A stretch of 63,187 nucleotides of DNA, filler included, from Lenisia limosa (Eukaryota > Protista > Breviatea): the NCBI GenBank assembly GCA_001655205.1. It is 8 parts of 8 records of this genome, joined end to end, with 100 filler letters (N's around TTAATTAATTAA, not from the genome) between each part and the next. Parts side by side here need not be neighbours in the genome. Positions count along the whole stretch, not along the records: positions 1 to 11,456 come from LPNZ01009024.1; positions 11,557 to 24,665 come from LPNZ01001868.1; positions 24,766 to 32,669 come from LPNZ01007514.1; positions 32,770 to 39,516 come from LPNZ01005593.1; positions 39,617 to 41,460 come from LPNZ01001027.1; positions 41,561 to 51,777 come from LPNZ01010007.1; positions 51,878 to 56,861 come from LPNZ01002272.1; 1 more part is not named here. One strand, given 5' to 3'. The notes beneath the pieces are model-generated. The model saw nothing but the letters and a program-made list of their open reading frames with translations, made no database searches and was not told the origin of the DNA. Positions 1 to 55,200 of this stretch are shown here, one piece after another (the first letter of the stretch is position 1; every line of letters begins with the position of its first letter). The position numbers were made by a program, and so were the translations under genes.

Positions 1-3000
1 ATAAGGACAGGAGGCGGGGTGGCCAATCAGGAGAGGAGAGGTGGTGGAAAGAATGACGGACAGTTCAACGGCGACTGATCCGCTTTTTGGGAGTTATCCA
101 CTATATTGCTGTGTATTTGAATACCCCCCGAGATTGTATTTTATGATTCTCAAAAAACTAATCCATGAACATCATCAGAACCCCCCCCCCCCNNNNNNNN
201 NNNNNNNNNNNNNNNNNNNNNNNNNNNNNNNNNNNNNNNNNNNNNNNNNNNNNNNNNNNNNNNNNNNNNNNNNNNNNNNNNNNNNNNNNNNNNNNNNNNN
301 NNNNNNNNNNNNNNNNNNNNNNNNNNNNNNNNNNNNNNNNNNNNNNNNNNNNNNNNNNNNNNNNNNNNNNNNNNNTAAGCTAGCACATACAATTGTTCAA
401 AAGCCACCCCTCCCCCCACACCAGTCATATCTTGAGTTGTAGCAGCGGCAGAGGCGGCAGCAATTGTATCAGGAACTATAAGTGTTGGAGGAGTCTAGAG
501 TGAGCGTATGATGGACCAGTGGGGGGGGGGTGGAAGTAAGAACCGTAGTGTAGCAAACGATATGATACTGAAATTATTGCAAGGAGTGAAGGGGTCAATA
601 TAATCTTCAAGTGCTTCACTTTCAGTTTCAAAAGACGTAAAATGATACTTCCCAAGAATTTTGACAAAATGGTCTGAAAGTGAATGCCTGATTAGACAAT
701 TGGAACTTTCGAAGGAAAACCAGGGCTTTTCTACAGTCCGTGTAAATATCAATATTTATCAAGAAATTTGATCCTCTGATTACTGAAAATGTCTAGTTCA
801 AATAACATCTCCAATCAATGAAAGTTCTATCATTTGAANNNNNNNNNNNNNNNNNNNNNNNNNNNNNNNNNNNNNNNNNNNNNNNNNNNNCCCCATCAAA
901 CATCAAAAATTAGTTTCAATAGAGTGAAACATTGTGTCATCATGTATTTTTTTAATTGACAGTTGAAAAAGGCAATCTCAGATTTTTATTCAGAAAATCG
1001 GTAAGGGTTTTCCAGTCAGCGTATCTTTAAAGACCTGTTGTTTTTTATTTTAGATCTACGTCACTAAATACCTGCTGTTGGGTTTTCATTACGGACATCT
1101 CTCCCTGCAGTGTAGCAACCGCGTTCTAAAAGCGTAAATACAGTGAATAGTACTTATGTTGAGGGAAGTGAGTAAACATTTTTTATCCCATTCACAAATA
1201 CATATAAGAAATGAAGTTTAATCATCGAGATTTCGTTTTCTTTATCCACCTCCACCCTCCTTTGGCTCTTCGTTTGAGACCCCCCCACCGCATAAGTCTG
1301 GACTTGAGTGGCCAGGTCAGAGTTCTGGCTTTGTAGCTGAAGAAGGGATCGTCGTAACCCCGTGTTCTCATTTAGGGCATCATCCTGGGAAAGGAGAGGG
1401 AATAAAGGTAGAAGAGGGATTTTATTAACTACTGATCTATTCTATCTCAGAACCCCTCCCCCACCACCACTAACACCCCACCCACCAATCTCGCCTGATT
1501 GGCCTCGATACTCGATTTGGCTGATTGCATGCGTGCGACTTGGGCCTTGAGGTGCAGGGCTTGGCTTTCAGGACTGAGGCTGGATTCCTAGGGGGGGGGG
1601 GGTAAAATTGGAGAATTTACAAAACAAAACAAGCCAAAATCAACTCTGTTGGCTGACAACACACGAGGGTTGATAACAACAAAACAAACAAGTNNNNNNN
1701 NNNNNNNNNNNNNNNNNNNNNNNNNNNNNNNNNNNNNNNNNNNNNNNNNNNNNNNNNNNNNNNNNNNNNNNNNNNNNNNNNNNNNNNNTACATGTAAGTA
1801 CCACCACCCTACAACTAAAGCTTTGGTCCCCCTCACCGAAACCAGGTCTTCCCACGGTGGCATGGCCTGGGTGGTCAGAAAAGACCAGCAGGGGGGAGGG
1901 TAGAATAGGAAAATTTATGAAATAAAAAATCCCAAAATTAACTCTATTGGCTAGGAGGGGCAGATCCCAAATTATGGGAGTGTAAAGACATTGGGCAGAT
2001 TGAAGTCATGGGAAACTTGTTTCCTCATTTACTACTTGAAAACAAGCTAGTGTCAGATATTAAGCCATATCCAATATAATCACAGAATCAGGATAATACG
2101 AGTTATAATTGAAATTTGTCTCGATTGCATTCGAAAATAAACATGTACTATAGTAGTATTATCTTATCATGCCGTACTTGGGTAGAGCATAACGACTGAG
2201 CAAAATTACTTGCCATTGAAACGTCACCGGTATTTGGCAGTGTGGGGACCTGGTTTGTGAGATATCGGATGGATACTATTGATTTTTTGTCTCACAAGTG
2301 TACTGGATATGCCTTGTAACTAGGGTTTCACTTCGGTTCAAAAATAGAATGAATTTCTCAATAAATCCTTGGTAAATACCGATATTTTATCGGTCTTTTT
2401 CGGACCAGAATCCGTGCAACCCTATGTATTGTAGTTTCAAAACCTGCAGCAATCACCCACCTTATGACTAGACATCTGAAGGGAATCTCTCAGGTCGTCA
2501 CGCAGCAGTGTGTTTTCCTCTTGTAAGTCTGTGACTACATAGTGAGATACAATCGTGTGAAAATGACCCAAATGAGGAAACAAGAATAAAGGAAGGCAGT
2601 AAAAAAAAAATACAACGAAAACCATCTTAAAAATCCAAAAGAACATAGGGTAGGGTCTTCACACACCTTGAATGCTGAGTTTCTGAACTTGTTCCGACAT
2701 TTCTCGCGTGACCTGACTTTCAGCAAAGGACTTTTCGCGCTCACTTCTAAGTTCAATTAATCCAAAAGCAGGCTACTGAATCCAATTATCACGTCGAAGT
2801 GAAGGATTTTTCGATAAATTTGTGAACAGAGTTTAGCAATTTTTGACCGTGGTATGAGTTGATCACAATTCTTAGAAAATCCCTTTTACCATGTATTGCA
2901 GAAAAAGAGTAATATAAAATAAAATGTTTCAATTACCACCATTTGACAAAATCCATCGTACATTCCCTGTTACTTGGGCGTAGCGTCATCGTAAATCCCT

Positions 3001-7900: not shown

Positions 7901-10900
7901 GTAACTCCCCTCCCATTCTGTGTGTTGGTCCGTTTTAAAATTCCCTTTACTCCACCTCTTTCTGATTATATTGTCTTTTTCATTCCCCCCATCCCCATGT
8001 TTCTTTTTTCTCTATTTTCCCTTTCTTATCTTCCCTCCCTCTCCCCCTTTGTCGGGCATAAAGCCAACAAAGTTGCGNNNNNNNNNNNNNNNNNNNNNNN
8101 NNNNNNNNNNNNNNNNNNNNNNNNNNNNNNNNNNNNNNNNNNNNNNNNNNNNNNNNNNNNNNNNNNNNNNNNNNNNNNNNNNNNNNNNNNNNNNNNNNNN
8201 NNNNNNACCATAGCCACTGCCAACGCCGCCGCAGAGAGAATGTTCCAGTGCGACTTAGATGTCCTTTTGGGCCTCCCAGTGGCGCGGTTGAGCCTTGAGC
8301 CTGGTGGGGGGGGTATTGTTGATAGTGATAATGATGGTAATTATGATGACGATGATGGTAATGATGATGATGATGATAATGATGATGATGATGATGATGG
8401 TAATGATGATGATGGAGATGATGATGATGGAGATGATGATGATGGAGATGATGATGATTGAGATGATGATGATGGAGATGATGATGATGACGATGATGAT
8501 GATGACGATGATGATGATGGATGATGATGATGGAGATGATGATGATGGAGATGATGACGATGATGATGATGATGGTAATGATGAGGTAATGATGATGATG
8601 ATGATGATGGAGATGATGATGATGACGATGATGGAGATGATGATGATGACGATGATGGTGATGATGGTGCATAATGTGATGACGTGCTCTGCAATGCTGA
8701 CCTTACCACCACAGACACGATTATGACGTGCTTTGACGATCTGAAGCAGTTCTTCCACATATGTAACGACGACGCTAAAAGCCTATTCGAAACCGTGGCT
8801 GTCCGTAATGTGGGGGGGTCTATCATTCTTATGATTGTACATACTTTTAGTAGTAAATGTAGCTTCACTTCGATCCGATAAAAGACACAATTTTCGGAGT
8901 ATTTTCGAAACTTAGCTACTGAACTTTTGCGGACCGCGGTGAACACGTATTTCGCAATGATGACGTCGACCATTTGCTCCTTATTATTCCTCTTCTCCTT
9001 TTTCCTCACGCAAGATAGAATGTGAACTACATTTCGAGTAACTATGCATAAGGATTAACGGTCTAGGATGGAGTGCAGTTTCCTGTCGAAGTCTCAGCCT
9101 CAGCTCTCAACATCTCTAAAAACATGGTTGTTGTCATTTTGAGGTTGGTACGGATTATTATTGGAGCTTCACGTTGGTCAAAGAAAGATGCTTTTTCGAA
9201 CTGAGGAGGAGGATTGTGAATGGAAAGGGGGTTTGGCGTTCCGAGTGTTTGCTAGAGGATGCACTACACAGAGAATTGTTTATTATCACAAAGGCTTAGT
9301 CTTTTTTTTAGGAGCTGCGGGCAAGCCCTTTTTATCATAATCATCCATGTCCCTTCTTACAGTTTCTCATTCTCTCTCCATTACCTCCCCCCCTTAGGGA
9401 TTTGACGATGGCGAAAGAGGCCGAAATGAATGTTCGAAGGGCGCATCACGAAACCGAAGCCGCCGCCAAGGTGGGGGGGGGGTNNNNNNNNNNNNNNNNN
9501 NNNNNNNNNNNNNNNNNNNNNNNNNNNNNNNNNNNNNNNNNNNNNNNNNNNNNNNNNNNNNNNACAAAGAAAGCTCAAAATCAACTCTGGTGGCTGGGGG
9601 GTAAGGTGATTGATTATTCATGTAAAATGACTATTCAAATAAAACATGCAAAAGTGATTATTGACACCCGCCCCCCTTTGCACACACAGACAAGAGCATT
9701 GTTTCTCTCCACCCTCAGCCATGAACTGGTCACTCCGCTCAATGGCGTTACCACCATGTCAGGCCTCCTGCAGGTGGGGGGCTAGATAGATGCGTAATTA
9801 TATAGGATGTATATGCATATAGTGGAGTATAGGCTCATCTCTGTATTTTGCCCCCCCCCCCCAGAGTTTATTTTGGGTTTTTACTATTTTGCTTCAAATT
9901 CATTTTCTACTTTTATATTTTCTTTCCCAGGAAACCGAATTAGATGACCAGCAAAGGGACTGTCTGGACATTATTGATGCGTGAGGGGGGGTATTTTAAT
10001 TATTATGAGAAATATTGAGAGAAAGCTATTGTTGTAACAAGAATTATGGTTTAACATTACCTCAACCCCCTTCCCGCGCTCACCCATCAAGATCCTCGCG
10101 GGTTCTGCTGAACTTAGTGCATAACGTATTATCCCTTACTCGAGCCCATCGCCACTCCCTCAACCTCTCTCTCCAGGTGGGAGGGACGCAAAAGGAATTA
10201 ATGACACATTTGTCTTTCGTTAATCAAGATTCTAAGTCTTTCTTTTGGGTTGTAATATATTAATATAAATCGACATAATGTTGACTGGAAGTAGAAATGT
10301 TTCGTTCTTTGATACAGTGGCCGTGATCTTTTCTTCTGCAAGGAAATATGACTTTATCAAAGACTATATACTACATGGATACTTACCATATTAGGAAGTT
10401 GACACGGTTTCCACCTTTGAACAGATTGCCAGTTTACTGACATCATTGGTGTGTGGGGGATATGGCCAGTTGATGTGCTATGAGGTAGGTGAAATGAACA
10501 ATGCTGTGACAATAGGACTGATCTTCCACAGCATTAACCAACTAAGTTGTTATGGGTTGATAAATTGTCCATTTTTATTTTTGTTTGGAGTTTCAGATTA
10601 TGAGATTCTACCTTCACGCCAATATTCTTCATCGAAATTTCTTCGTTTTACCCCCCCCCCCNNNNNNNNNNNNNNNNNNNNNNNNNNNNNNNNNNNNNNN
10701 NNNNNNNNNNNNNNNNNNNNNNNNNNNNNNNNNNNNNNNNNTGTCCCGTCACATGTCCTCTCAGACCCTGCACGATTGAGGTGAGGGTGAAATAAATGAG
10801 AAGAATGAGGGGAGTGAGGGAACTTAAGATTGTTGTATTCCCCTCCAATACTATCATCATCACCATCCCAACATCACAGCACCATCCTCACCAACCTCGG

Positions 10901-11406
10901 TACCAACGCTGTGAAATTCACCCCGTCTGGCCACGTCCTTATCAAAGTCTCCTGGTAAGATAGCTGGTGCTTGATCGCTATCAAAAGTGTTAAATTTCTC
11001 AAATCGATTATTTTGAGTCGAACATTTGAAAGGGAGCTTCCCAACAGTCACAATAACCGCCTAATATTTTGGAGAAATAAGTTCGCACAAGAACTTACCT
11101 ACTCATCCAAAAACTGTTCGATGTTTATCGAGGATTCAACAAGGATTTATCAAGGATTTTCGAGGATTTATCAAGGATACACATTAATTATATATTTAAC
11201 CTCTCACCCCAGGAGGGCCTCTTCGCAATATTCCGATTTTGCTGGGGGCTCGGAAGAGACAATGACTCGGAACCGCCCTGTAGATCTCAGCCGATCATTC
11301 AGTCGGTCCGGAAGGAACCTTCTCGGCAACATGGTGGGCTCTAGTGAAAGCTCCGATCTTCTCAGCAGTGAAACGTCCTCTTCAGATTCGAGTTCCAGTT
11401 CAAATG
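4955..11406 (+). CDS. Membrane PAS-domain sensor histidine kinase (TM-sensor-TM-PAS/PAC-HisKA-HATPase_c), cut off by a contig join
   Basis: PAS: TANAAAERMFQCDLDVLLGLPV (~8210-8303). PAC: ETVAVRN|DGVQFPVEVS...VILR|DLTMAKEAE. H-box: FLSTLSHELVTPLNG (~9700-9750), then ETELDDQQRDCLDIID and SSRVLLNLVHNVL. N-box: SDPARL|..ILTNLGTNAVKFT (~10745-10920). Hydrophobic exons at ~5080-5150 and ~7610-7665. The start codon and N-terminal exons are tentative; G-boxes and any receiver domain are not visible. Confidence 0.85.
8325..8670. repeat. (GAT)n/(GATGGA) degenerate microsatellite in the intron that splits the PAS domain
   Basis: Lies between donor GT at 8304 and acceptor AG at 8713-8714. It explains the spurious poly-His, poly-Asp, poly-Met and poly-Ser ORFs. 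Confidence 0.95.
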
Positions 11407-32944: not shown

Positions 32945-33706
32945 ATGTATGATCTGCCCCTCCTTCTCATTCAAGTTGTGACTCGAGTTTTCGAGGAAAA
33001 CGTCGTTCAACATCAACAGGTGCCGTCCACTGGAGAACAGGTCCTTGCTGAAGCCGCCAATGAGCCTGAAAAATACGCACGGCGTCTGGACCCTTGTGAT
33101 GTAGAGGCAGGAGCAGAGGAAGAAGGAGTAGAACGATGAATGACTCTGTGGAGGGAAGTTAACGGGGAAATTGTACGAGCGCCTCAAAATCATCTGTTGG
33201 TTAAATTTGCGAAAAATTACGAGGGTTGAAAACTAGAAACAAACAAAGCCCAGGCCAGTCGNNNNNNNNNNNNNNNNNNNNNNNNNNNNNNNNNNNNNNN
33301 NNNNNNNNNNNNNNNNNNNNNTTTCACCATATTTAAACACCTCTCACCAGATTGATATTCGAAGATGGATGCTCAAATCTCAGACCAATAGTCGACCAAA
33401 AGTTGAGGAAAATTGTTGAAAACCTGCAACATTATACTATTTTATCCATATTATGTTAGATCTATATCATATTATAGCAAAATGATAAATTAATATAATA
33501 TATGCCATTTATTACGTCTCTACAACAACATATGATTAGGGCTTCACTTCAGTTCAAACAACGACTGAATATCTCGATACCTGGGTTGTTTCGAACCGAA
33601 GGGAATCCCTACATATCATACATTATTCACCCACCAAGAAGACGTCATGAGGTAGTCGCAGAGTTGCATCCATTGGTTAACCGTCCAACTGCCTTTTGAC
33701 GGGTCA
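32945..33706 (-). CDS. Exons of a hypothetical protein; may be the upstream part of the 24.8-32.3 kb gene, but a spacer lies between them
   Basis: DPSKGSWTVNQWMQLCDYLMT|FSTIFLNFWSTIGLRFEHPSSNINL|MILRRSYNFPVNFPPQSHSSFYSFFLCSCLY...EGQIIH, all GT-AG and phase-consistent. Further unresolved exons are likely up to ~34.5 kb. Confidence 0.5.
33537..33611. mobile_element. Family A MITE copy (internally deleted)
   Basis: TA|GGGCTTCACTTCAGTTC...GAACCGAAGGGAATCCC|TA. Confidence 0.7.
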
Positions 33707-34698: not shown

Positions 34699-37600
34699 AT
34701 GTCAGAAGCCCCGCGGGGTGGGCGAGGCCGACGAAGGGCCGGAAAAGCCAAGGCCTATACCAAGGACAAGGAGAGGGCNNNNNNNNNNNNNNNNNNNNNN
34801 NNNNNNNNNNNNNNNNNNNNNNNNNNNNNNNNNNNNNNNNNNNNNNNNNNNNNNNNNNNNNNNNNNNNNNNNNNNCCCATTATAATGGCAAAATACGCAC
34901 ACAACTTGAGGCGTGAAATTTACGTCACTCACTTGAAAAAAAGTACTATCCATAAAATCGTCCTAAACATATCCGAACAACGTGAAAAAGGGAAAACACG
35001 AAGACCCTTCCCCATATCCCCGCTTAAACCTATCCAAGATATAGGCCATTTGAATCATTTCTTGTGTTTCAAAAGCCGCACAACATGATGCTAGTCTTTT
35101 TTAATATGTTTTGATGTAAAATTACATTCGCTTTTCGTACGTTGGAGTGATGGGATGCGGTGCTGCAGAAGCGACNNNNNNNNNNNNNNNNNNNNNNNNN
35201 NNNNNNNNNNNNNNNNNNNNNNNNNNNNNNNNNNNNNNNNNNNNNTTTTTAATTTTACCCCCTCCCCCCCAGAACCAGTAGCAGCGGAAGAGGCAAAAAG
35301 AAGCCCCGCGGCCGGGGGAGGGGCCGTGGAGGTCGTGGAGGTGGAGCCAACCGCGCCGAACTTGAGGAGGAAAAGAGGATTCGTCTCAGTTTACAAGCGG
35401 AATACGAGGTTGGTTGTAGATATATTTATCAAAGATTTTTCGAGATTTCAATTTGTTTTTTGGAGTTCTAGTTATTTGCCTCGGCGGTGTATAATTATAT
35501 GTATAGATATGCATATTTCACACATTTTTTTTTTATCTCCTAAACCCATCCCTTATCAAGCCCTATTTCAAAACGGGGTTTCCGGACTACTTAGCCAACA
35601 GAGCCGATTCAGAGCCGATTCTGCGGTTTTTTGTTTCACTAGTTTCCCAATTTATTATTTACCCCTCCCCCAGAGTAAAGTGCCGCTAATGGAGGAAGCA
35701 CCAAAAGCGGAGCCTTCCAAACCCCAGCAAAAAGTTGGTCAATACCCCGATGGTTAATCAAATACCCCCATTGTTACCTGGGTTCCACTTCAGTTCGAAA
35801 AGACCGGTAAAATATCGACAGTTTTCGGTGATTTATCGAGAAATTTAGTCGTTTTTCGAACCGAAATGAAGCCCGGTATGTCATACCCCCCCACCCCGCA
35901 TACCCATAAAGCACTCCTCTGTAGAGATTCTCTGTGTAGAAATTGTCCGAATTTTTCGAATATACATGTACATAAATGTCTCGCAATATATTCTGTCCTG
36001 ATTTTTAAAGTTATTCATCATAAATCTGTCATTATTGATTATTTTTCAGCCCGCGCCGCGACCCTCAAAACCAAAGAAGCCGCGCAACCCCACGTCTGAC
36101 ATTAAAATCCGCGGCCAGATTCGGCAGCCAGTTGACGGCAGGACACTGTTTATTCCAGGCCAAGCCGGGACGCTGATGCAACAGAAAGTTATCCCGGGCA
36201 TCACACTAGAGGAGCTGCAGCGCCCCAGAATTCCACATCCAAGTGGGGGAGGGGTGTAATTATTCTTTCATTTTATTGTTTATCACTCCAATATAATATC
36301 CCTTTAACACTAATTTACGCAAAATGGTGGCCAAATACGCACACATTTTGATTTGCATGAAATTTGGTTTACGTGCATGTTGTTACGAGTTTTTATTCTG
36401 ATCAAAAAAAAAACATGTCATAAAGGTCAGAGTTTCACTGCGGAGATGACACTAGTGGGAATTGTGGGGGAGAACAGAACATAAGTTCATATTCTGCCTC
36501 AGATACCCAGCAAGGAGGTCTCTCATTAAACATTAAAGCAGCACTATCGTTTATAAACTTCGAACTTTGAAATTTAATGCATGGGGGTATATTCACCCAA
36601 GAAACAACAAAGTCTCCGATTTTGCATGGGGAGTCCCGAAATTGAACTTCACACAAGCCCTCCTAGGGGTTATACAACATAAAACTACTACAAAAAAACA
36701 GCAAGACACTTCATTACCTCAAGGGCTTCACGTTGACTCCGTACTGCTTTTGATTTTTTTCCTTCCTTCCTCCTCCCTCTTCTCGCCCTCACCATGATAG
36801 TAGAAAGAAATCTTCTTCTTTTCCCCCTTCAGCTCGTTGTCGTCGTCTTCCTCTTTCTTCTCTTCCATCATCCATATTCATTCTCCTTCTCTTCGTATTC
36901 GTCCTGATACTCTCTCTTCTCCTCTATTATGTTAAAAGCAGATTGCTGTGGAGCGTGTGTCTCATGCACACACTCTGCAATCGTAAGCACCACCCCCAAA
37001 CCTTCTCGGGCATGGCCTTAGCTACACAAAATGAGATGCCGTTCTCGTGGCGAAGTAGTACGTTACCGCGTAGAAATGCATAAATGTGGCATCATTCCGT
37101 ATTAGATCCGGCGACATCTTTGATATATTAAAGGACGAAAGCTAAAAGCGGTAGGGTTAATAATCACATAGTGTTACTTGGAGTGATCCTGAATATTCAA
37201 AAGGAATTTCTTGAGATCGAGTCTATAAATTACCCAGAAGAAAAGAACTTCCCCCATCATCCACTGGAGACAACATGCCCCCTTCTCTCAAATTCGTTTC
37301 CTTAATTATGAGGAGAAAAGATTATAATTTACAAAAATCAAAAGCTTACTGATATTGAAACTTTGCTGATCCTGTATAGACGAAATTCACCCCTCAAGTG
37401 ATCAACTTTGGTTTTGCGTAAAATAAAAGCATAACCCCATTTCTTATAACCCTCTGACACCATTCTCCTACTAGTCCTCCCCTTGTAACTTCTTACCCGA
37501 TAGTGTTTATTACATCAATTTTCCATTTTGTCCCCCCCCCCCCNNNNNNNNNNNNNNNNNNNNNNNNNNNNNNNNNNNNNNNNNNNNNNNNNNNNNNNNT

Positions 37601-39400
37601 CAGCCAACCTAATTTTTTTTTTGGGGCTTTTTGTTATTAATTTTCCGGTTTTTCCCACCGCCCAGCAATATTGAGCTCATAACAGGATACAATTTCTTCT
37701 TCCTCCCTTACCATCCCCCACTTAGACGAACCCAAAAACTTACCTACTGCACCAGCAAGAAGACCGTCTGCACAGCGGTGGGGAGGGGAAGAAGATTATC
37801 TTTATTAATGGGGGGTGATCAGACCAGAATCTGACTTAAGGACCCCGGAATTCCATTTCAAAACTCCGACTTAAGGATTTTGAAAGGTGTCTTTGGTCAC
37901 TTCGAAAAAATAAATTACACAGGAGTATTTGTGATACTCAAATTATCTATACCATGAACCAGACCTGAGGTCAAATGTATGTAGTGTATCCGGAATAAAT
38001 CTTGGTCGATTTACTACAAGATTATCTTTTATACAGATGATGGATGGAGGGGAGGGGGGTATCTTTAATATATGTATAGATGATGGATGGAGGTGTGTGT
38101 GTGTGTGTTTTTTTGGTTGGAAGAGTTTTTGATCTGGTTAATTATTGGAGTTGGAGGACTCTCTTTTAATCGATGAAGAATATATGTCATAGTGATGGGG
38201 AGGCAAGCAGAAAGCTGTACTGACTGTGTAATATCATGATTCAGAGTTTTTGAGGATGAATACCCCAGCCTCCAGCCCCAGGCTAATCCACACACCCCTT
38301 ATGAGGTAAGCTGTGATTTTACTTCTTTCCTTAAAAGGAATCGGGGGGTTTTGTCCATTACCTAAAAAGGAAGCTAAAGGGGGCAATATTCATTTTTCGG
38401 GGTGCGGGAGGCGAGTAAATTGAATTCTATATCAGTAGAAGGATTCTATTGGATTCAAGGAGCGTATCTATACAGGGGAGCAGCGGTTTATTTATCCTCT
38501 CCTAAATTGAATTCCAGGGGCAGGNNNNNNNNNNNNNNNNNNNNNNNNNNNNNNNNNNNNNNNNNNNNNNNNNNATTATATTCCAACAATATTCATTAAG
38601 TTTGATTCTAGAGGTTCATTCATCCAGGAACCTGCAGAGACTGTCACTGAAGACTGGGAGGAGGAGGCTGCCAGAATCCGGAAAGCTGAGAAGAGGGAGC
38701 AGCAGGCAAGGCAGCTTGAGAGGGTGGGTGGGAGCTTCTTTTTCAATATGCTGGGGAGCCACGTAGTAAGTTGTGTACAGAGTTGTAAGGCGAATGATTG
38801 GGTGAATTAATATTATACAGTAATCCAATTATGAGCTTTGTTTTTGTTTCATTTGAAAAACTATCCTTTTTTTTTACTCCCCCAGAAAAGACTCCAAGCA
38901 ATTGAGGATGAAAAGGTTAGAAGGGTTATGTGGTATTTTTCGGGGGTGTCCCCTTATGTTGTAGTGAAGGAGGGAAATAAGACTTAGTTTTATTATAATA
39001 CTATCATTGATATACAGTGACGGGAGAAGCCTTGACCGATTTGCTCTGTGGTTTCCCAAAAAATAGGTCAAGACTTATCCTAGTCCAGTGTATATTATTA
39101 TATACTTCATTTCATCAGCCACTCTGATTTTTTCACTGTTTTTGTATTTTGTGATATGAATTGTCTTGCCATTATATCAGCTACGTGTACAGTCAATGTC
39201 AAAAATACATTTAACACCCTGTAAAAAATGCCACCATTAAGTATTACTACATTTTCTATCATACCTGTTATCTGTGTATTCTTCATAATCGTCTTTTCTT
39301 ACCTTCTCTAATATGCGATGACAGGCCCAAACAGCAGCGAAGCTCTATGAAGCAATGAAGAAAGAGGAAGACATGCTTCAAGCTCGGAAGACCAACAAAA
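34699..39400 (+). CDS. Basic RGG/RG-motif protein with C-terminal coiled coil (putative RNA-binding), cut off by a contig join
   Basis: MSEAPRGGRGRRRAGK...; GRGKKKPRGRGRGRGGRGGGANRAELEEEKRIRL (35273-35409); PAPRPSKPKKPRNP...LEELQRPRIPHP; EDWEEEAARIRKAEKREQQARQLER|KRLQAIEDEK|AQTAAKLYEAMKKEEDMLQARKTNK. Confidence 0.65.
35138..35272 (+). mobile_element. Element B, sense copy ending at the 3' splice site (gap inside)
   Basis: CGTACGTTGGAGTGATGGGATGCGGTGCTGCAGAAGCGAC-N-TAATTTTACCCCCTCCCCCCCAG|exon at 35273. Confidence 0.75.
35780..35874. mobile_element. Family A MITE copy
   Basis: GGGTTCCACTTCAGTTCGAAAA...TTTTCGAACCGAAATGAAGCCC. Confidence 0.75.
36688..37117 (-). pseudogene. Degenerate antisense ORF (stop plus frameshift) nested in an intron of the RGG gene
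   Basis: The minus strand reads MSPDLIRNDATF...HFV*LRPCPRRFGVVLTIAECVHETHAPQQSAFNIIEEKREYQDEYEEKENEYG*, then shifts frame to MMEEKKEEDDDNELKGEKKKISFYYHGEGEKREEEGKKSK...FL*. Confidence 0.35.
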
Positions 39401-39657: not shown

Positions 39658-41165
39658 CGTCCCTCAATGCTGGGGGCCTTGTTGTCAATCTAAACCGTGA
39701 AACCGTCGCGTCTCTTTCGAGTTTCTTTGCCCCGGTCACAAACGCTCTCAGGTAACCAACACTAAAATTTGCGAATTTGGTCGAGTCACAAAGAGGGCTT
39801 CACCTACAGAAGTGAGGCCCCACCCACAGTGCATTACAAGTGATTATTTACTTGAGATAGCTCTCCGCTTGAATTTGTATAAATTCCAAGTGATGGGATG
39901 TGGTGCTGCAGAAGCAACTGGCCTGTTTGTTTTGTTGTTATCAACCCTCAGTTGTTGTCAGCCAACGGAGCTTCTTCTTTTTATTTATTTTTATTTATTT
40001 CATAAATTTTCTAATTCTCCCCTCCCCTAATATCCTGGCAGTTCCAGTCCACCCACAGACGAACGAATTGCTAAGCAAAGCCCCAAACAAACCGCCCAGC
40101 CAACTTCCGCCAGGGTTGGACATTGATGATAAGGAGGAGGGTTATCACGGTCATTTTTACAACCTGTCTTTTTTCTTTTCAAGTGTAGCTCATATAATGA
40201 GAAAAAAAAATAAGGTTGTATCTGGCCGAAGTCGTCCACACCACCACGCTTATAAATATTGGATTATAGAATAATTTTATTCACCCAATCATTTGCCTTA
40301 CAACTCTGTGCACACAGCTTTCTGCTCGCCTCATTGTAGCTCAGAATAACCATCACCATAATACTCCAGAGTTCTTTTCTAATCGACATCGTTTCTGCAG
40401 TTCATTTGCTCACATTTTAGTATGACGTCAACGCCGCATCCATTTTAATTCGTCTCAATGAAATTGACTCAATGGAAGTTATCACCGAGGTTTCTCTAGC
40501 TGGAATGGGTGAGGGGTCTAATATTGAGTGAAAGGGGGTTGGCTTTTTTTTTCTTTTTTTTTTTCTTTCCCAAATGTTGTCAGCTAACAGAGTTGATTTT
40601 GTGCTTTTATTTGTTTAATTTGTTTTCCAATTTCTCCCCTCTCCCTCTTTTCCTCATTCCCCCAGCACTTTCAATGCTCGAGACAGAGACTCTTACATCG
40701 ACACATATGAGCTTGGCAGCCCTCTCAGTTAGCGACACCCTTTCCAACGCCGCCATTATTCGCGTGCATGGTGACCAGGTTGGGGAGGAGCTTGATCTGT
40801 AGAGCTTCCATACGGTCAAAAAAGACCGAATTTCTCCATAAATCCTCGATAAATCCACGACAACTATCGATATTTCCCGGTCTTTTTTGGACTGCAGAGA
40901 AGCCATAGTGATCTGAATGAAGGGTAACAAGGTGCTGCGTAGACAGATGGGGATAATGGAATTTTAAAGATTATCAGAACGGAGATTCAACGTTTGTTTT
41001 CAAAAAAAAAATTATCACACTTCCAGGTGGCTTCCTTCCACCATGAGACCTACACAGGAAAAGCAGCCAGGACGTCCGGTCACGACACCTTACTCGAACT
41101 TTGCCTTGGACGGGTGGTCGCGGAGGTCAATGGAGTTTGGCTTGCTCGAATGGCCAATTACGCTA
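39658..41165 (+). CDS. Internal fragment of a VPS13/bridge-like lipid transfer protein (repeating beta-groove type)
   Basis: ASLNAGGLVVNLNRETVASLSSFF; YDVNAASILIRLNE...EVSLAGM|ALSMLETETLTSTHMSLAALSVSD; GHDTLLELCLGRVVAEVNGVWLARMANY. The strand-helix pattern resembles VPS13/ATG2 modules; this is pattern recognition, not a database hit. Confidence 0.55.
39888..40041 (+). mobile_element. Element B, sense copy ending at the 3' splice site
   Basis: GTGATGGGATGTGGTGCTGCAGAAGCAACTGGCC...TCATAAATTTTCTAATTCTCCCCTCCCC..GGCAG|exon at 40042. Confidence 0.75.
40208..40330 (-). mobile_element. Element C, reverse-orientation copy
   Basis: Its reverse complement matches 42450-42573 along the whole length. 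Partial copies at ~16478, ~20520, ~21367, ~22055, ~33830, ~38748 and ~49383. Confidence 0.7.
40800..40907. mobile_element. Family A MITE, subfamily A2 (GGGCTTCC-CTACGGTCC ends)
   Basis: TA|GAGCTTCCATACGGTCAAAAAAGACCG...CGGTCTTTTTTGGACTGCAGAGAAGCC with the same internal core as family A. Confidence 0.7.
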
Positions 41166-41595: not shown

Positions 41596-44500
41596 GACGC
41601 TTACGAGCTGATTGAGATGGTGAAGAAGAAGCGAACTGCGGCAGCGTCAAAACGCACTGTTGAGGAGGTACCCGAGATTGACAGCGAAGGTCCGAAGATG
41701 CTTTATATTGCCGGCTTTGTGATGCTTTATTCATGACCATGTGATAGTCATGTTCATTAACGTTTCTCATATGATATAATTTACATGTATACATATGTAG
41801 TACATCTGTGATGTACAGCATATGTCCCATCGTATGTTCATTTGAAAGCCACTTTCATCTATTGTGCTTTTACAGTTCAATATCTGTTACCAGTGTAATG
41901 GTGTGGACAGTTTCGATCAGTTACAACTTTGTTTTTTGTTTTTTCTCATTGTACTCGATATATATTGTGCTTTTTGACACCTTATTTTTATCACCTTTAA
42001 CTTATAACCCTGCAGCCATCTCCGGCTGGACCGGCTTTGGGCTCTCAGATCCGATTCTGGCTGGCATCCAAGCGTTGCAGTTCAAAACTCCCCTCCCGAT
42101 CCAGGGTATGGGCCTATCATATGATGTGTCGTATTTCATACAGCTATGTGTATCATGGGCATATAATAGTCCTTGGTCAAGATTTTTGAAGGTTTTGATA
42201 AAACCAAGGCTCCTAACAACTAAAAAATCACTATATGACTAGTATGATACTATGCTATGATAGTATTATAATATATATACAATGTATATAATTATGTATA
42301 TGTAGTAGTATATGATATAATTAGGGCCTCTACGGTCCCTAAAAAGACCAAATTTCTCGACAATTCCATGTCGATATTTTGGAAGTCGTCGATATATTAT
42401 TATATTAAATTGTATTATGTGAGGAAAATGAAGGGTCTGGGATGCTGGGGAGGCACGCAGAAAGCTGTGTACACAGAGTTGTAAGGCAAATGATTGGGTG
42501 AATTAATATTATACTACAATCCAATATCTCTATTAGCGTGATGGTATGGACGGCTTCGGCCAGATACAACCTTGTAATATTGTCATTGCAATATTGTCTC
42601 CTGGTATTTCTACTGCTTTTGTCTCTGTTGAAGTGACTGTTCAGCTGCAACGCTTCCCCCTCTGCTCAAGGGCTACGATGTGATGGGTGCTGCTGAAACT
42701 GGGTCCGGAAAGACCCTCGCCTTCTCCATTCCAATCGTCAACTATCTTGCCAACAACCCTGGTTCGCGAGGGGGTTGGTGGGTTGATTTTGAACCCCATT
42801 TTGTCATTATAATATGCGCGAGAATGAATGTACTTTATGTATAATCTAGGGAAACAAAAACCAAATACTGAATCTACAAACAAAATTACCAGAAGGCAGG
42901 GTTATTTTGGGCATGCCGAAAGCTGTGTACACGGATTTGTAATGAATCTGTTAAAAACACACACTCACCATTTCAGCTGATAATGCCTCTATCCGGGCCT
43001 TGATCCTCTCCCCCACCAGAGAGCTGGCTGTGCAGGTATGGGGTTGAAGGGGGCTTACTGAACTGTATTCAGGATATTTATTAAAATTTTCTTCGAAGTT
43101 TTTAAGGAACCAGACTGATAAAGCAAAGTCGGAATATTTTCGATAGTCTTCTTATAGCAGTATTTATCTTGTTTATACAACTAATGCAACAGATTGCCGA
43201 TAACGTGGCACTCATTGCGCGCTATACGCCAATTCGCGTGGTAACTCTTGTTGGAGGTATGCTTCTTGGGGGGGGGGGGGCTGTNNNNNNNNNNNNNNNN
43301 NNNNNNNNNNNNNNNNNNNNNNNNNNNNNNNNNNNNNNNNNNNNNNNNNNNNNNNNNNNNNNNNNNNNNNNNNNNNNNNNNTACTAATTTTCTGCATTTT
43401 GGCACTTGGCTTGCTTTTTTGGGAAAGTTGAGACTTACCGTATTAGGCATGTCGATCGCGAAGCAAGAGCGTCAAATGCTGCACCAGCCTGAAGTGGTGG
43501 TTGCCACCCCAGGTCGCCTCTGGGAGGTCATTGAAAAGGTCCGTGCCGTATACACAGTGACCTTAAGTCTTGACCCATTTTCCTTGGGAAACCGCGTAGC
43601 AAAGCGGTCAAAACTTATTCCGGTCACTGTATATTCTATGCAAGTGTTCTGTCTTATTCTCATATGCATATCATATATCTTTTTCGGACTGTAGGGAATC
43701 CCTAGTGAGATATATTACTGATCTTTTTCATACCTGACTGAAACCCTAGTTACCGTTACTACATGCCGGAAGTCTGACTCTTTAGCTGGGAGACAAAATT
43801 AACTTCGAGTCTCTCCGATTTGTCGCGGTAGATGAAGGTTAGGGGGACCTTTTTGCCTCTGTGTGAATAAAGGGGGACAATGATGAAGTCTATTTTTTCC
43901 CAAGAGATCTAAAATTAACTTTAATAATATTTTTCATCTGTTATAGAGTCGGTTTTTTTTTTTTTTTTCATGATATTNNNNNNNNNNNNNNNNNNNNNNN
44001 NNNNNNNNNNNNNNNNNNNNNNNNNNNNNNNNNNNNNNNNNNNNNNNNNNNNNNTGTTTTGTTTTGTTTTGTTTTGTTTTGTTTCCCCAAATGTTTCATT
44101 CGACCCCCACCCCTTTTCCGTGATTGCCAATTCCTTATCAAAGTTTCTATAATCTACCCTTTTTGTTTCATAAATTTCCAATTTGTGCGCTGGAGTAATG
44201 GGATGCGGTGCTGCAGAAGCGACTAGCCTGGGCTTTTTTTTGTTTTGTTGTTATCAACTCTCTTGTGTTGCTAGCCAACAGAATTGATTTTGGGCTTTAT
44301 TTGTTTCATAAATTTTCCAGCTTCTATTTTGAAAAGAGTTGAGTTTTCTAGGTGATCGTATGGTGGAGTCCGGCCACTTCAAAGAATTCGAGAGCGTCAT
44401 AGACCACCTGGGATTTGAGAAGAAAAAGTGGGGGGGGGGGGGGAANNNNNNNNNNNNNNNNNNNNNNNNNNNNNNNNNNNNNNNNNNNNNNNNNNNNNNN

Positions 44501-47500: not shown

Positions 47501-50500
47501 NNNNNNNNNNNNNNNNNNNGATGGAGTTGGATGTCCCAGCTTGGCCCCTTCACGCCTCTATGCAGCAGCGCCAACGAATCAAGAACTTCGACAAGTTCCA
47601 AGCTTCTCCAATGGGCGTTTTGGTGGCTACTGATGTGGCTGGTTGGGGNNNNNNNNNNNNNNNNNNNNNNNNNNNNNNNNNNNNNNNNNNNNNNNNNNNN
47701 NNNNNNNNNNNNNNNNNNNNNNNNNNNNNNNNNNNNNNNNNNNNNNNNNNNNNNNNNNNAATTAATTGCATGGAGCCCTAGGACTAAACCCATCATTCCC
47801 CTCAAAGCATTCTTTCATAATTTCCGTTTTTTTTTTGTTGCTGGCATTCCCCTCACCCCCCAGGCCGAGGATTGGACATTCCTGAAGTAGACAACGTCAT
47901 CCACTACCAACTTCCAAGAAGCTCTGAGGTCAGAGTCTGATCTTTTGATCCGTTTCTCTGCGCTCCTTATTCTTATTCGTATCTTCTTTTCCTCGTCATT
48001 CCCTTTTGTTATTTCGCTTATCCCAATCCTTAGTTTTGGTCTTTGTATTTATAAGTAGCAGAATTATCTGATTGGTTAAGAAGACTTACAACTTACAACA
48101 GTCACTCAATCATGTATTACATATGATAGTATTATAAGAGCTTCACTCCAAAAGCGTTTTTGATTATTTGATCTTTTAGATTTACGTTCATCGCGCGGGT
48201 CGTACCGGTCGTGCTCGTAGCGTTAGGGGGAGGGGGGGTAAAATTGGAAATATTGAAACAATAAAAAGCCCAAAATCAACTCTGTTGGCAGGGGGGATAT
48301 CTATCATTGTGTTTCACTTCACTTTGGGTTCCAAAAAGACGGAATTTTCAATACATCCTCGATAAATATCGATATTTTACTGTCTTTTTGGATAAATATT
48401 TTTGATATTTTATTTATAAGTCTCTTTTGGAAGCGAAAGTGCTCCAGAATATCATCTTGTCGTATTTGACAGTGATTATGTAGAGCTTCACTTCGGTTAC
48501 TCAAAAACGGGAGAAATGTCTATATTGAGTATCTATTCAAGAATTCCTTCTTTCATACCATATTAGGAACCACTTACCATATTAGGAAGGTCTTTCCGTC
48601 GTACTCCTTAGCCCCGAAGACGCCGAAAACTACCGCAGGATCATGGCCGCGCTTAACATGACTGAAGATCTCCCCGAATTCCCCGTGGAGCATTCTTATA
48701 TCCCTGCGGTGGCGGAGCGGGTCAGTTTGGCCACTCAAGTTGCCAAGTTGAGGCACCACAAGTCCAAGGTGGGTGGCTGAAACACTTTGTTCATTGAGCT
48801 TCCTTTTCACACCTCATGGCTAACCTATTTATATATTATTATGATATTAATACATATTATACATGTATTATATACTAATGTAAATTTCCCATTGCACCCC
48901 CCCCCCCCCTTNNNNNNNNNNNNNNNNNNNNNNNNNNNNNNNNNNNNNNNNNNNNNNNNNNNNNNNNNNNNNNNNNNNNNNNNNNNNNNNNNNNNNNNNN
49001 NNNNNNNNNNNNNNNNNNNNNNNNNNNNNNNNNNNAGTTGATTTGGGGCTTTTGTTTCATAAATTTTTCAATTTCACCCTCTCCCCCTCCCGCAGGCAGA
49101 GCTGGAGAAGAATTGGTTGGTACGACAGTCACAGGAGGCTGAGCTCGACCTTGACGATGATATGATGCTGGAATTCGAGTGGGGGGAGGGGACCTTCTCT
49201 ACAAAGTGTTCATCAATATTAACATCACTTAGCAACACCTACATACATTATTTAGCACTCTGCCATGAATTAATATTATTATATAATCAGAGTTAAATAA
49301 TGAGTGTAGCAATAATAAAACAAGCAATGTCACAAAATAACAAGAGATCAGTCCTGATTTTTGTAATAATTTATTGCATTATCGGTGTGGTATGGACAGC
49401 TTCGGTCTTAATTTTTGATCTATATATGGCCTTATATTTAACACTACAGGGAGGATCAGACCATGGTGAAGGACAAGAAGAACGAGATTGGACGGTTACA
49501 TGCCGAACTGAGGGAACTTCTTGCTCAACCTCTCCTCACAGTTGGACGCAACAGGTGGGGGGTGATCATTAATATACTGTTTTTTTTTGGGGTCATGTGT
49601 GTGTTGGGGTATTATTTGACTGTTTTCTGTTTGACTTTGTTTTTTGTTCTTGTTCTGAGTGTTATGTGTTATCTTGCTTTTGCTTTAAATACTCTAGAAT
49701 GGTGTTGTTTCAGCTCAGTGTTTAGCCAATAGCATTAATACTCAGCATTATGTAACCAAAACTGGCTTACTGTTTTCTTTTATAAACTTCCATAAAGGCA
49801 ATTATTGCATTATCTAACCGAAATGACTTGTTTTCCTCATCGATAAATCCATGACCGGACACTGTAGATCTTTCATGGTGTCACGTGAGCATCACAAAAC
49901 CGTTGAGAATGACTTAAAGAAGGGCAACTGGTCCCAAAGGATCCGGGCCGGCTCCATGATGGCAGGCAAGACTAGTCAACTTCCGGAGGTGGGAGGGAGG
50001 GGGTTCAATGTGGGAAAGGGGCAAGAGTCAACTCAAAACACTGTAATCCGTACCTTATTGCACCGTCATCGCCATTTCCCTGTTTACGACCAGGTGCGAA
50101 AGGCGCTTGAAGCGCTCCAAACCGCCAAGACGGAGAAGAGCACCAAGGGCATTACCCTCATTGGAGACAAGGCTGATAAACATCGTGAGGCTCAGAAGAA
50201 AATGGCCCAGGACAAGCTGAAGAGAATATCAGAAAGCAAAAAGGCGAAGAGGTTGGGGGGGGGGGGGNNNNNNNNNNNNNNNNNNNNNNNNNNNNNNNNN
50301 NNNNNNNNNNNNNNNNNNNNNNNNNNNNNNNNNNNNNCTTTGGCTTTATTTATTTTTGAAAGACATGATATTTATACAAGAGTGAATCAATTCTTTTCTA
50401 CAGTGTATGATCATCAATGTTCCTTTTGGTGCGTTCTGACCAACTGTTATCGTTATGAACGGCTGTACTCTGGTATTTTAGTTTCTTATGAACCATCTGA

Positions 50501-50968: not shown

Positions 50969-51530
50969 ATTAGGCGTTGTGTTGAGGCATACACTGAAAT
51001 CCTTCATATTCAACACGACCCAATCCATCAATTCAATAAACACTTGAGCCTCCACTTTTCGAGTTCATCTCGGGCAATAGTGCAACCTGAAGCGTGGTGG
51101 TGCCCCCCTCCTCCGAAACACTAAACCGTTAATAGGCCGGCTAAACCGCATATGATATGAGTTGACGCAATATATATCTAGAAGGGCCCCCTCCTCCCTA
51201 CTTCAGTGATCTCAGTGGTTGAGTTTGAGGGGTTGAAGCTGCCAAGCTTATCCCACTTTGCTGGAGCAGCCCATTTAGCTTCCCTGCAGGATGAGATGAA
51301 TCTTTTTGGAAGGATATCAGTAGTAAATAACAAATATAGAAATGAGATGAGTCTTTTTGGAAAAGGATATCATAGGAGTAGTTACAGAGGCTACAGCAAC
51401 CTCCCCTGTTGATTCTGGGTTTTTTGTTTCACAAAATTTCCATTTTATCCCCCCTTCCCCCAACTCAGGTAACTTGGCATAGGCCTCAGTCGCCTTGTCT
51501 TGAACCAAACTTCTAAAGGAAACCTTGTAC
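50969..51530 (-). CDS. Probable 3' exons of a convergent hypothetical gene (strand and frames uncertain)
   Basis: YKVSFRSLVQDKATEAYAKLP (51530-51465), EAKWAAPAKWDKLGSFNPSNSTTEITE|GTAGGGAGG. A plus-strand reading is partly open too. Confidence 0.3.
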
Positions 51531-51562: not shown

Positions 51563-51660
51563 TAAGGCTTCCTGCGGTCCCGAAAAAAGACTGAATTTCT
51601 CAACAAATCTTCGATAAATATCGATATTTGACTGGGCTTTTTCGGACCGTAGGGAAGCCC
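51563..51660. mobile_element. Family A2 MITE copy
   Basis: TA|AGGCTTCCTGCGGTCCCGAAAAAAGAC...TTTTCGGACCGTAGGGAAGCCC. Confidence 0.75.
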
Positions 51661-52225: not shown

Positions 52226-55200
52226 TTTTTGGCTTCGGCGTGGTTTGCGAGGGCGAATAGAGCCGTCTCCGAACAGGAATCGTGTCATCTTCTGACTGGG
52301 GAGGGTAATGAGTTACGGGGAGGGAAATTCTGGGGAGGTGTGGATGGGGATCGTAGAAATATAATGAAACAAACATAATCTACTCTGTTGGCTCAACTTT
52401 TGAAGAAACACAATCTACTCTATTCGCTCAACTTTTGAAGAATAAAAGAGGTGTTTGAAAAGTAAACAAAGCCATTATATATTATATTATATTCAAATAA
52501 ACAAAACAAAAAACAACTCTACATGGGAGTTACACCCCCCAAATTGATGGTCATCATAGCAATATAACAATCAATGACATACAATGACCGGAATAAGTCT
52601 TGACCGATTATCTCTGTGATTTCCCAGAAAAATCCGTCGAGGATTTCCCAGTCAGTGAATATCATACGATATGTAATTACCTACAGACTGTAACAGATAA
52701 CTCCCCCAACCATTACATCAGGGAGTCCATCTTGAGGGGAAAGCGGCGGAGATGTGAGGTAACTGGCATTGTTGAAGCGATCCTGTCCGTTGTTGTCAAA
52801 AACTGCATCGACAACTTCGTTAAATCGGTCAATGTTGAACTCTTCGTCATCATCATTATGCTGCCTCATGATATGCTCGTTACCGGGAGCAACGGAAGCT
52901 TCCGCGTTGCTAAAGTCCACTTCACGGAGCGGGGAAAGAGTTTCATCGTCTCCTAGATGCGGTTGCGGGCTAGAGCCCTGGGACGCAGGACTGAGGACCA
53001 TGGGGGACCCGGGGAATCTCGGGGAGAGAGGGGGGGAGGGTGAGGGTCTTCCAAAAATGGGGGAAACTGCGGGGGATAGCGATCTATGATCGGGTGAGGC
53101 GAATGCGAAGAAGTTTGTTGATCTGGGAGCACTCGGGTTCCCCGGGGAGACCAAGGCGGCAAAACCTCCGGTTATCGGAAGCGGCGAGGTCGGCTCTGTT
53201 TTCCGCCCGTGTTTCTGCGGTATATTTGTCCCCGCCATGCCGGGAATACTTTCATCACTTGAGCTGAGATCTATTGATCCGAAGTCAGCGGGGCGCTTCA
53301 ACGTGGCATCTGGGTTCCTGAGAGCTTTTCGCGAGGCTTTCGGTTTCTCGGGAGTAATGCCCGGCCTGGGCTTGGTTTTTGGTTTTGTGACAGACTGGGG
53401 CTCTTGCGAGGTGATTGCCAAGATCCGATCGAGTATGGGGTCCCGTTTTGGCTCTGTCGGCTCTTTTTTCTTCCTTTTTTGGGTCTTTCTCCCTGGCTTT
53501 GTATCCAGTATAGGAAGAGCTGTTTTGTCGGTTTCCGTCTTCCTTGTCTTCTTCTTGTCTTCTTCCTTCTTTTTTGAGACAGTTGCTTTAACCCCCTTCT
53601 TTTCGTTTTTCCTCTTGCTGCGTGCCCCCAGGATTGTATCGGATAATGATGACAAGGAATCGTCAGAACCAGGACCTGATAGCTCCGCAGCCGGGGATAG
53701 AGAAGCTTGGCGACCGGCTGTTTTTGGTGGCAGTTTTGGTTCATCCGACTCCGAGCCAGATGAAATGGATCCCACGATCTGACTGGGAGTTCTTCGCTGG
53801 GGCTTTGGCCGAACAGCTGGCTTGTTTTTCTTCTTGTTGCCCTTCTTCTCCTTGGTTGTTCCAGTTGCCTTTTTGTCAAGTCGGGCCTGGCGTTCTGCTT
53901 TCTTTTTCTCAGCAGCGGCCTTCCTTCGGTTTGCCGGATTGAAGAAGTCACTTAAGCTGGCGTCGGAATCGGAAGCGTCGGAAGCTTCTTCGGAAGATAA
54001 CACGGGCTCGGGTTCCGCGACCGGTTTTGCCTGTCTTTTCTTTGGCTTGTCGCCCGGGCTGGGCTTCTTTGGTGTGGGCCTTTTAGAAGCGGGCTTCGCT
54101 GGCGGCGTGGGTTTCGTGTACCGGACGGGCTTTTTGCGCGCTTGTTGCTTCGACATGGGCTTGTTTCGGAAGTATGGGGTGTCAGACAGATCGGAAAGCT
54201 CGGAGTCGGAAGCCATTCCTAGGTCTGCCGTCGGAATTGTCGGAACCTTCGGAACTGGCCGGACCGGAATGTCGAGGTCGGAGGAGCTGTCGGAGTTGGA
54301 CCGGACCGGCGGCGGCAGGTCTTCAGCGTCACTATCGAAAAGATTGTTTTTGAAAAGAGAATCTAGGGAGCCTGATGACCCCGGGGAGTCCGGGAGAGGT
54401 TTTTCTCCGATTTTGCCTCGGCGCTTCCAATCGCTATTAGAATCTGGCGACGACGCACTGCGCGCATGGGATGATAGTTCTTCCGTTAGTCGATCGAGGG
54501 AGAACCCCGGGTCCTCCTCATCACTGTCCAAATCGATCGGCGACCGCTTCGGCTGTCGGGTCGGAACCGCAGCTTCCGACTCACTTTCCGATGAGACTAG
54601 AAGGGCCAGCCGGCCGTCATCGCTCTCATCGTCGTCTTCGACGATTGTTTTTGGCTTCTTTCTAGTGTTCGAAGAGAGCTTGAGCTCGCCAGATCGCGAC
54701 AGATCAGACGCCCCCGTGATATGACTGGTTTGAGAAAAGAACATTTGAGATGGAGAGAAGGGGGAGAGATGGGCGGTGGAGGAGCGTGCGGCAGCTGGAA
54801 TGGTGTCTCTTTGTTGGAAGGATGAAGGAGACTGCTCGTCTAGGGGGTTCTATGGGTAGTTAGCGGAAGTGTTTCTAAAAGTCTATCACGCACATTCACA
54901 TCAAATAGAGTTTTACAAAAGAGTAATAGGAGTTCAGGAATACATAACATTATAAAGACAAAGACAGAGAGTCTTAAGCAAGCAATTTATTCGAAGAGAC
55001 AAAGCAAAATGAAATGTCACAAACAAAAAGACGAAAGAGAAAAAAAAAAGATGAAAGAAAAGCTGTCAAACATACCTGGTTCTGAGGGGTGGAGGGAAGG
55101 CCAACAAGCTCAGGCTCCGAGTCGGTATCAGGATCACTAATGTTGACCGGCGGGGGGCTTGAGGGAATCCTGACTTTAACTTCCGAGTCGGCTTTTTTCT

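Follow-up and report, generated by a model that had tools for sequence, protein, structure and literature searches.

Here, we describe element B, a dispersed repeat of about 140 bp in the genome of the breviate Lenisia limosa, nearly all of whose copies lie at exon edges with a fixed polarity. In the 63,187-nucleotide stretch of DNA that we analyzed (hereafter, the window; eight parts of assembly GCA_001655205.1 joined end to end), 19 copies could be assigned to splice sites, by hand and including some that are split by assembly gaps or slightly more distant: 15 are sense to the host gene at acceptors, 4 are antisense at donors, and none faces away. The antisense donor copies reveal the rule behind both placements: wherever B meets a G:C run, its C strand matches that of the run. 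On balance, we lean towards the view that B is a non-autonomous retroposon primed at G:C runs, which is tolerated because its geometry leaves the GT or AG with the exon and its end rebuilds a branch point.

Identity and abundance of element B

A profile built from 14 copies in the window was searched against the same window with nhmmer, yielding 23 matches at E<0.05, whereas the reversed window contained no match at E≤5 and none of 10 locally shuffled windows produced one below E 0.39. Thus, B is a real repeat, as proposed in an earlier sequence-only reading of this DNA. Its consensus spans about 142 nt, after which comes a C-rich run.

Sequence of the window is contained, in the form of contigs, in an RNA run and a DNA run from a single study; the DNA run is perhaps the source of the assembly itself and hence does not count as independent evidence. 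Summed DNA depth over the core of one B copy is 552,706, compared to 30-35 on its unique flanks, and over a second copy 377,230, compared to 14-28, which suggests that B is present at roughly 10^4 copies (the depth ratio of about 1.5e4 is a rough guide, being different from copy number). DNA depth falls from ~120,000 to ~100 across positions 30181-30194, showing that the 5′ end of B is sharp, and the loose ends of two sets of DNA contigs, 58 in one and 103 in the other, give a consensus terminating in the G/C run, indicating that the tail is general among copies. RNA depth over B is only 28-49, so that the element is scarce among poly(A) contigs.

In agreement with the sequence-only reading, B contains no terminal inverted repeat (its internal inverted repeats are only 5-6 nt long) and no open reading frame conserved across copies, and a coding role was rejected. 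The small hairpins mentioned in that reading are present, but folding of the sense copies is no better than that of shuffled sequences (z -1.62 to +1.17), and a stable RNA structure was rejected as well. Rfam searches of the whole window at the gathering score returned 0 matches, and at E≤10 on positions 44050-44445 merely 3 chance bacterial motifs; neither ARAGORN nor motif scans of metagenome and viral contigs produced a match.

Orientation of B at splice sites

Splice sites were taken from a hand-curated set of 124 acceptors, 124 donors and 88 introns (87 once one phase-slip intron was removed), for which exon chains staying open in one frame were retained, with a noisy automatic gene finder, run on both strands, serving only as a guide. 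The intron-dense genes of the window encode a DDX24-like helicase, a histidine kinase, a Stig1-repeat protein and a UBZ zinc-finger protein; one protein search yielded 4 DEAD-box relatives that were then used for tblastn, and another gave no match.

Among the 17 copies with a visible 3′ end (6 of the 23 being left out, and projected ends overshooting in copies with gaps or deletions, such as those at 24302 and 35136), 13 have that end no more than 45 nt from an exon edge, compared to a null proportion of 0.196 for intronic positions (p=7e-7). Conversely, none of the 23 5′ ends comes that close. B is found at 15 of the 124 curated acceptors, whereas the antisense copies are located at donors 9470, 21983, 48221/48222 and 51464/51465; four matches (20349, 27019, 37503 and 37600) fall outside the splice-site assignment. 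In the same introns, matches to a miniature inverted-repeat transposable element (MITE), family A, which served as a control, show no polarity, with 5 of 23 at one end and 6 of 23 at the other.

The comparison with intronic positions within the window thus reveals a strong polarity, and the pattern extends beyond the sequence-only reading, in which only sense copies at 13 acceptors were listed. Twelve of these sites (1588, 1867, 25745, 27776, 30055, 35272, 37663, 40041, 40665, 44351, 49095 and 52296) do have a sense B upstream of the AG; at the remaining one, ~8210, B was not detected, with only a ~13-nt match ahead of a 129-N gap. Besides the four antisense donor copies, acceptor copies at 24393, 27997, 33146 and 35673 are new.

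Three B-adjacent junctions, at acceptors 30055 and 49095 and donor 48222, are used in RNA, as deduced from the coordinates of aligned pieces of RNA contigs. A contig aligned over 29962-30054 departs from the genome exactly at acceptor 30055, and in the DDX24 contig, a 108-nt gap between aligned pieces (1+65+42) requires donor 48222 and an 85-nt gap (2+83) requires acceptor 49095. Acceptor 44351, whose exon is absent from the RNA pieces listed, is supported by DDX24 homology together with the reading frame, and in the coiled-coil gene hosting acceptor 1588 the exon chain stays open through 10 exons.

Among homopolymer runs of at least 5 without a gap upstream, B occupies 9 of 23 at acceptors, 3 of 34 at donors, 1 of 69 at other non-exonic positions and 0 of 25 in exons, a count in which acceptor occupancy is inflated by the tail of B itself and donor copies may be hidden by N gaps after 3 donor runs. 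Further weak B matches (E 0.2-4) are located at other runs.

Splice signals of the host introns and candidate signals in B

The introns in the window are unusual in style, with G-rich runs after the GT and 3′ ends that are rich in C instead of U. In 12 nt, B-free donors contain 5.5 G on average, where the background has 2.1; a G run of at least 4 follows in 48 of 121, and G occupies position +5 in 109 of 124 donors. Likewise, B-free acceptors contain 4.2 C in 12 nt, where the background has 2.0. Of 102 B-free acceptors, 86 (against an expected 38%) have the motif YTNAY at a distance of 8-30 nt from the AG, with a peak at -9/-10, pointing to a likely branch point near the AG. Pairing between the G-rich and C-rich intron ends was considered and rejected: donor G and acceptor C content co-vary weakly (rho 0.27, n=87), and not significantly within genes (p=0.12).

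At acceptors, the sequence of its end suggests that B probably contributes a branch-point-like motif as well as a longer C run. Of 15 B acceptors, 9 have their nearest YTNAY inside the end of B itself, the A being at -9 to -21, and 5 have a host YTNAY surviving between B and the AG, with none at 44351; a C run of at least 4 is present at 10 of 12 B acceptors versus 18 of 112 B-free acceptors. The AG, however, belongs to the host rather than to B, given that antisense copies end in the complement of the donor instead. The head of B starts none of the 87 curated introns, so that B is never a whole intron in this set, although the full-length 5′ end does begin with GT followed by G at +5, and scores above 30% of the real donors and 92% of intronic GTs.

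Truncation, flanks and class affinities

The copies bear a retroposon-like footprint. Fifteen of the 19 copies with a visible 5′ flank are 5′-truncated, whereas a clear 3′ cut, made by a MITE, is seen in just one. Truncation starts cluster at model positions 89-92 and 97-107, which correspond to the 3′ arms of two short nested stems, as if reverse transcription had stalled at them. Of 19 copies, 8 have a C-rich 5′ flank, with 4 or more C within 8 nt, compared to the 5.7% expected in intron interiors (p=5e-6), and duplication-like flanks of 5-7 nt, where the sequence-only reading had found no target-site duplication, accompany 5 of 13 copies. Head-to-tail tandem copies were seen both in the window and in DNA contigs.

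B shares with short interspersed nuclear elements (SINEs) its small size, non-coding nature, high copy number, simple-repeat 3′ tail, fixed 3′ end and 5′ truncation, but not a head of tRNA, 5S, 7SL or snRNA origin that carries an internal RNA polymerase III (Pol III) promoter: B contains one 8/9 match resembling a B box, and the pair of A box and B box is absent. Motif scans covering metagenome and viral contigs turned up no partner long interspersed nuclear element (LINE) with the same 3′ tail. Unlike MITEs, B has no terminal inverted repeats combined with a fixed target-site duplication. Helitrons and Helentrons of the DINE-1-like kind have conserved termini, with a 3′ GC-rich hairpin or sub-terminal inverted repeats; the B consensus contains no GC-rich 3′ hairpin, fixed terminal motif or sub-terminal inverted repeats. 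A group II intron remnant was rejected, because Rfam at E≤10 around a full copy detected no match to domain V/VI, the sole likeness being a GT start and an AC end; stwintron-like nesting was also rejected, because taking B out leaves no AG.

Copies in the window

The more complete acceptor copies include those at 39887..40027 (plus strand; sense, near full-length, acceptor 40041, with the host motif retained downstream) and 30059..30185 (minus; sense, near full-length with a 20-nt internal deletion, acceptor 30055). Complete 5′ ends are found at 35136..35270 (plus; sense, internal N gap, acceptor 35272) and 28023..28217 (minus), where an N gap is followed by a C run 26 nt from acceptor 27997. 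The sense copy at 25747..25887 (minus) is split by an N gap and ends in a C run and AG at 25745. At 44160..44325 (plus), a 3′ fragment is followed, head to tail, by a full B that lacks the C tail, upstream of acceptor 44351 in the DDX24-like helicase gene.

Shorter sense copies occupy 1591..1693 (minus), with the 5′ part inside an N gap and a C run and TAG at acceptor 1588 of the coiled-coil gene; 1888..1953 (minus; 5′-truncated, acceptor 1867), where a branch-point-like motif of the host is retained downstream and a 6-nt duplication-like flank is present; 40570..40645 (plus; 5′-truncated, acceptor 40665); and 49036..49090 (plus; 3′ part after an N gap, acceptor 49095). The copy at 27778..27825 (minus, sense) consists of only the final 47 nt of B and adjoins acceptor 27776; a branch-point-like motif and a C run are stranded just upstream of it, with a 7-nt duplication-like flank on both sides, the layout expected of an insertion between branch point and AG. 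Diverged sense copies are found at 35591..35671 (plus; 5′-truncated, acceptor 35673), 33153..33261 (minus), next to predicted acceptor 33146 of a single predicted exon, 52340..52394 (minus; 5′-truncated), 52 nt from acceptor 52296 of the UBZ zinc-finger gene, and 24302..24393 (plus), where a decayed 3′ part, read by eye beyond the profile match at 24302-24354, reaches acceptor 24393 of the Stig1-repeat gene.

The clearest of the antisense donor copies, at 48226..48289 (minus; 5′-truncated, E 1e-12), has a C tail that coincides with the G run after the donor GT at 48222 and a 7-nt duplication-like flank. The one at 51408..51461 (plus; 5′-truncated) abuts donor 51464/51465 of a minus-strand gene; that at 9564..9596 (minus; 5′-truncated, E 2.8e-4) enters an N gap ending at the G run after donor 9470 of the histidine kinase gene; and a weak, diverged copy at 22000..22047 (minus, E 0.014) has its 3′ end 19 nt from donor 21983. 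Away from assigned sites, 20349..20400 (plus) is a weak 3′ part (E 0.025) in mid-intron, 205 nt from the next curated acceptor; 26940..27019 (minus), which adjoins no curated splice site, has its 3′ end cut by a family A fragment; and 37503..37665 (plus) comprises two pieces arranged head to tail around an N gap, with candidate acceptors at 37665 and 37725.

Other repeats and genes

Three further repeat families were observed. Family A is a palindromic MITE of ~97 nt with long terminal inverted repeats, often flanked by TA, with 23 matches (35780-35874, 21105-21200, 51566-51660, 12193-12284, 2323-2422 and 18 more). Family C is a repeat of ~125 nt that bears, close to the 3′ end, a GC stem with a TTCG loop and has no Rfam match (42452-42576, 40211-40330, 38758-38836, 21331-21409, 20498-20573 and 9 more); it is a second orientation-biased element, since 12 of its 14 copies run in the sense direction of the host gene (p=0.013), often begins after a G-rich stretch, and reaches a summed DNA depth of up to 233,000. 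Family D, 133 nt long and bounded by terminal inverted repeats of 18 nt, is located in DDX24 introns at 47001-47133 (also 47759-47779). An intronic GAT-type microsatellite of about 370 nt occupies 8320-8690, and a 39-nt tandem repeat at 39376-39516 extends into a linker.

The DDX24-like helicase has DEGD in place of the usual DEAD in motif II (43786-44427), a region spanning the junction beside the B copy that lacks the C tail. The histidine kinase gene (9398-11406; HisKA E 1.6e-5, HATPase_c E 0.04) is divided into very small exons, one of 16 nt, and the gene at 15258-24469, with at least 24 predicted exons, encodes Stig1-like cysteine-rich repeats at the N terminus, along with an acidic linker. 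A minus-strand coiled-coil gene at 56962-63187 stands apart from the remainder of the window: it has short introns (median 106 nt), weaker G/C tracts and no matches to B, A or C.

The window is eukaryotic DNA of 38% GC with 44 N runs, of which 14 make up seven 100-base linkers between contigs (starting at 11457, 24666, 32670, 39517, 41461, 51778 and 56862), all identical: 44 N, a 12-base spacer with stops in all frames, and 44 N. Because the linkers join contigs, neighbourhood across them is uncertain. Many of the other assembly gaps start or stop at G or C homopolymers.

Discussion

The sequence-only reading left two options, that B targets existing C tracts or that it brings or reinforces a 3′ splice signal. 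Our results favor the former, given that the C tail has the same polarity at donors, that 8 of 19 5′ flanks are C-rich and that B-free introns carry tracts of their own; the latter holds in part, for the probable branch-point-like motif and the longer C run, and fails for the AG. A retroposon origin fits the 5′ truncation, the fixed 3′ end and the duplication-like flanks. The starting point, seen in our gene models, is an intron that begins with GT and a G-rich run and ends with a branch-point-like motif, a short C-rich stretch and AG. In target-primed reverse transcription, a LINE-like enzyme would nick the G strand of a run and prime on the C-rich end of B RNA, so that the sense strand of B would become the C strand, sense at acceptors and antisense at donors. 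By this geometry, the body of B always lies on the intron side, while GT and G run, or C run and AG, remain with the exon, which would make the insertion site a safe harbor. Insertion at an acceptor may shift the host branch point ~50-150 nt upstream, and such copies could survive because B closes with a branch-point-like motif that immediately precedes the C run. The excess at acceptors might then reflect better priming on a target resembling the end of B (motif and C run), selection, or both.

Several observations weigh against the retroposon scenario. Occupancy of acceptor and donor runs is unequal (Fisher p=0.009), whereas pure run-targeting predicts more donor and mid-intron copies, so that an extra factor is needed, be it priming on the motif and C run or selection. 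Acceptor regions are C-rich anyway, which weakens a 5′-flank test with intron interiors as the background, and the frequency of duplication-like flanks is not significant against swapped pairs (p=0.057). Rfam and ARAGORN detected no tRNA-, 5S- or snRNA-derived head, and the sense strand lacks an A box. The head-to-core depth ratio differs between copies (about 0.25 versus about 0.7), and the copy at 44185 has neither a C tail nor a YTNAY. Furthermore, the gene models are our own and were curated with knowledge of B, and the splice models were trained on sets including B-adjacent sites.

Alternatively, B could insert with little target preference, bringing its own C tail, with selection retaining the splice-useful copies (branch point and C tract at acceptors, G run at donors) and purging mid-intron decoys. 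The longer C runs at B acceptors (10/12 versus 18/112) and the preference for acceptors over donors are compatible with this scenario, as is the fact that few copies end in the 63% of curated intron bases located more than 45 nt from both ends. However, the C-rich 5′ side in 8 of 19 copies is expected of landing within a run, and families A and C sit freely in mid-intron, indicating that insertions are tolerated in the introns concerned. A repeat-laden genome also seems hard to square with strong selection acting on thousands of loci, and we regard this explanation as unlikely.

The sequence-only reading had further likened B to introners, while noting that it is not the whole intron. In a second alternative, B would be an intron-shaped unit, with a GT head, a branch-point-like motif and C run, and a co-opted AG, which propagates as an introner or derives from one, the majority of the copies that survive being truncated or stranded within older introns. 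The donor-like score of the full-length 5′ end, with its GT and G at +5, speaks for such a unit, and introners have been described that bring one splice site themselves and co-opt the second (PMC9860276, in the part available to us). Nevertheless, the likeness does not hold at the level of whole introns, with the B head beginning 0 of 87, the RNA contig at 30054 is not joined to sequence upstream of the GT of B, and reverse splicing at the RNA level cannot produce 4 antisense donor copies, all of which renders this origin improbable.

Slightly less probable still is a DNA route, through a run-targeting Helitron/DINE-like or MITE-like element or through templated repair where G:C runs are prone to breakage. 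In its favor, the inverted repeats inside B are short and a Pol III head is lacking, assembly gaps concentrate at G/C runs, and microsatellite-targeting Helitrons and MITEs are known (PMC3812793, as far as consulted), but terminal inverted repeats are absent (internal ones reach 6 nt at most), there is no GC-rich 3′ hairpin and no fixed terminal motif, and one-sided truncation with a homopolymer end better suits reverse transcription.

Taking the retroposon reading a step further, one can tentatively imagine B as a mobile 'half-intron' cassette, a family homing to the branch point and C run that would provide the working branch point of several percent of introns (9 of 124 acceptors here), with tails that may seed the G and C runs marking the intron ends of this organism, which would in turn offer targets to new copies, and a full-length, GT-headed form that may sometimes create introns. 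We consider this bolder version doubtful, albeit conceivable. If the retroposon reading is correct, B would be a transposon family that uses splice signals as a landing pad and G:C runs as a safe harbor, replacing the branch point that it displaces. It would then become testable whether, in the absence of any intron gain, mobile elements can rewrite the core signals that existing introns carry, and whether element tails can build the unusual G-run/C-run intron ends.

Comparison with known systems

In the literature searched, judged from titles and abstract openings and including few subscription journals, we found no genome-wide family of the kind of B. The closest parallels known to us from parts of the cited papers differ from B in informative ways. 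Microsatellite-targeting elements include the non-LTR (LTR, long terminal repeat) retrotransposons Waldo, Mino, Kibi, Koshi and Dong, the Helitron MINE-1 and the MITE Micron (PMC3812793); as in B, insertion is tied to a simple repeat, with the orientation presumably set by the repeat strand. However, the targets given in the part of that paper available to us are ACAY, AC, TC, TTC, TAA, GAAA and TA, with no G:C homopolymer run among them and none described there as a splice signal, and the retrotransposons are autonomous, whereas B is a 140-nt non-coding unit.

Alu and the canine merle SINE (PMC7349775) parallel the reading of B proposed here, in that a short insert at an intron-exon boundary, with a target duplication, alters the spacing between branch point and acceptor, and in that a homopolymer tail acts as the pyrimidine tract. 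In the cases described in the portion consulted, these elements act in antisense, via the poly(A)/poly(T) tail, at single loci or in rare exonizations. B, by contrast, has a tail of C and lies in sense at acceptors but in the opposite orientation at donors; it leaves the AG of the host in place and is present at 15 of 124 curated acceptors.

Introners (PMC9860276, PMC12130899), as far as these sources were seen, are likewise high-copy elements at splice junctions of unrelated genes, with intron-like ends comparable to the GT head and branch-point-like tail of B, and some co-opt one splice site (PMC9860276). Introners insert into exons and constitute an entire new intron (PMC9860276, PMC12130899, PMC11282704, all in part), whereas B forms part of longer introns, is mostly 5′-truncated and occurs in antisense copies too. 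Finally, introns bridged by complementary simple repeats (PMC4691745, seen in part) carry low-complexity tracts at both ends, as do the introns here with their G and C tracts, but in the hosts of B the two ends co-vary only weakly (rho 0.27; within genes, p=0.12). If the retroposon reading holds, B would connect repeat-targeting retroelements with transposon-donated splice signals, at the scale of a genome rather than of single loci.

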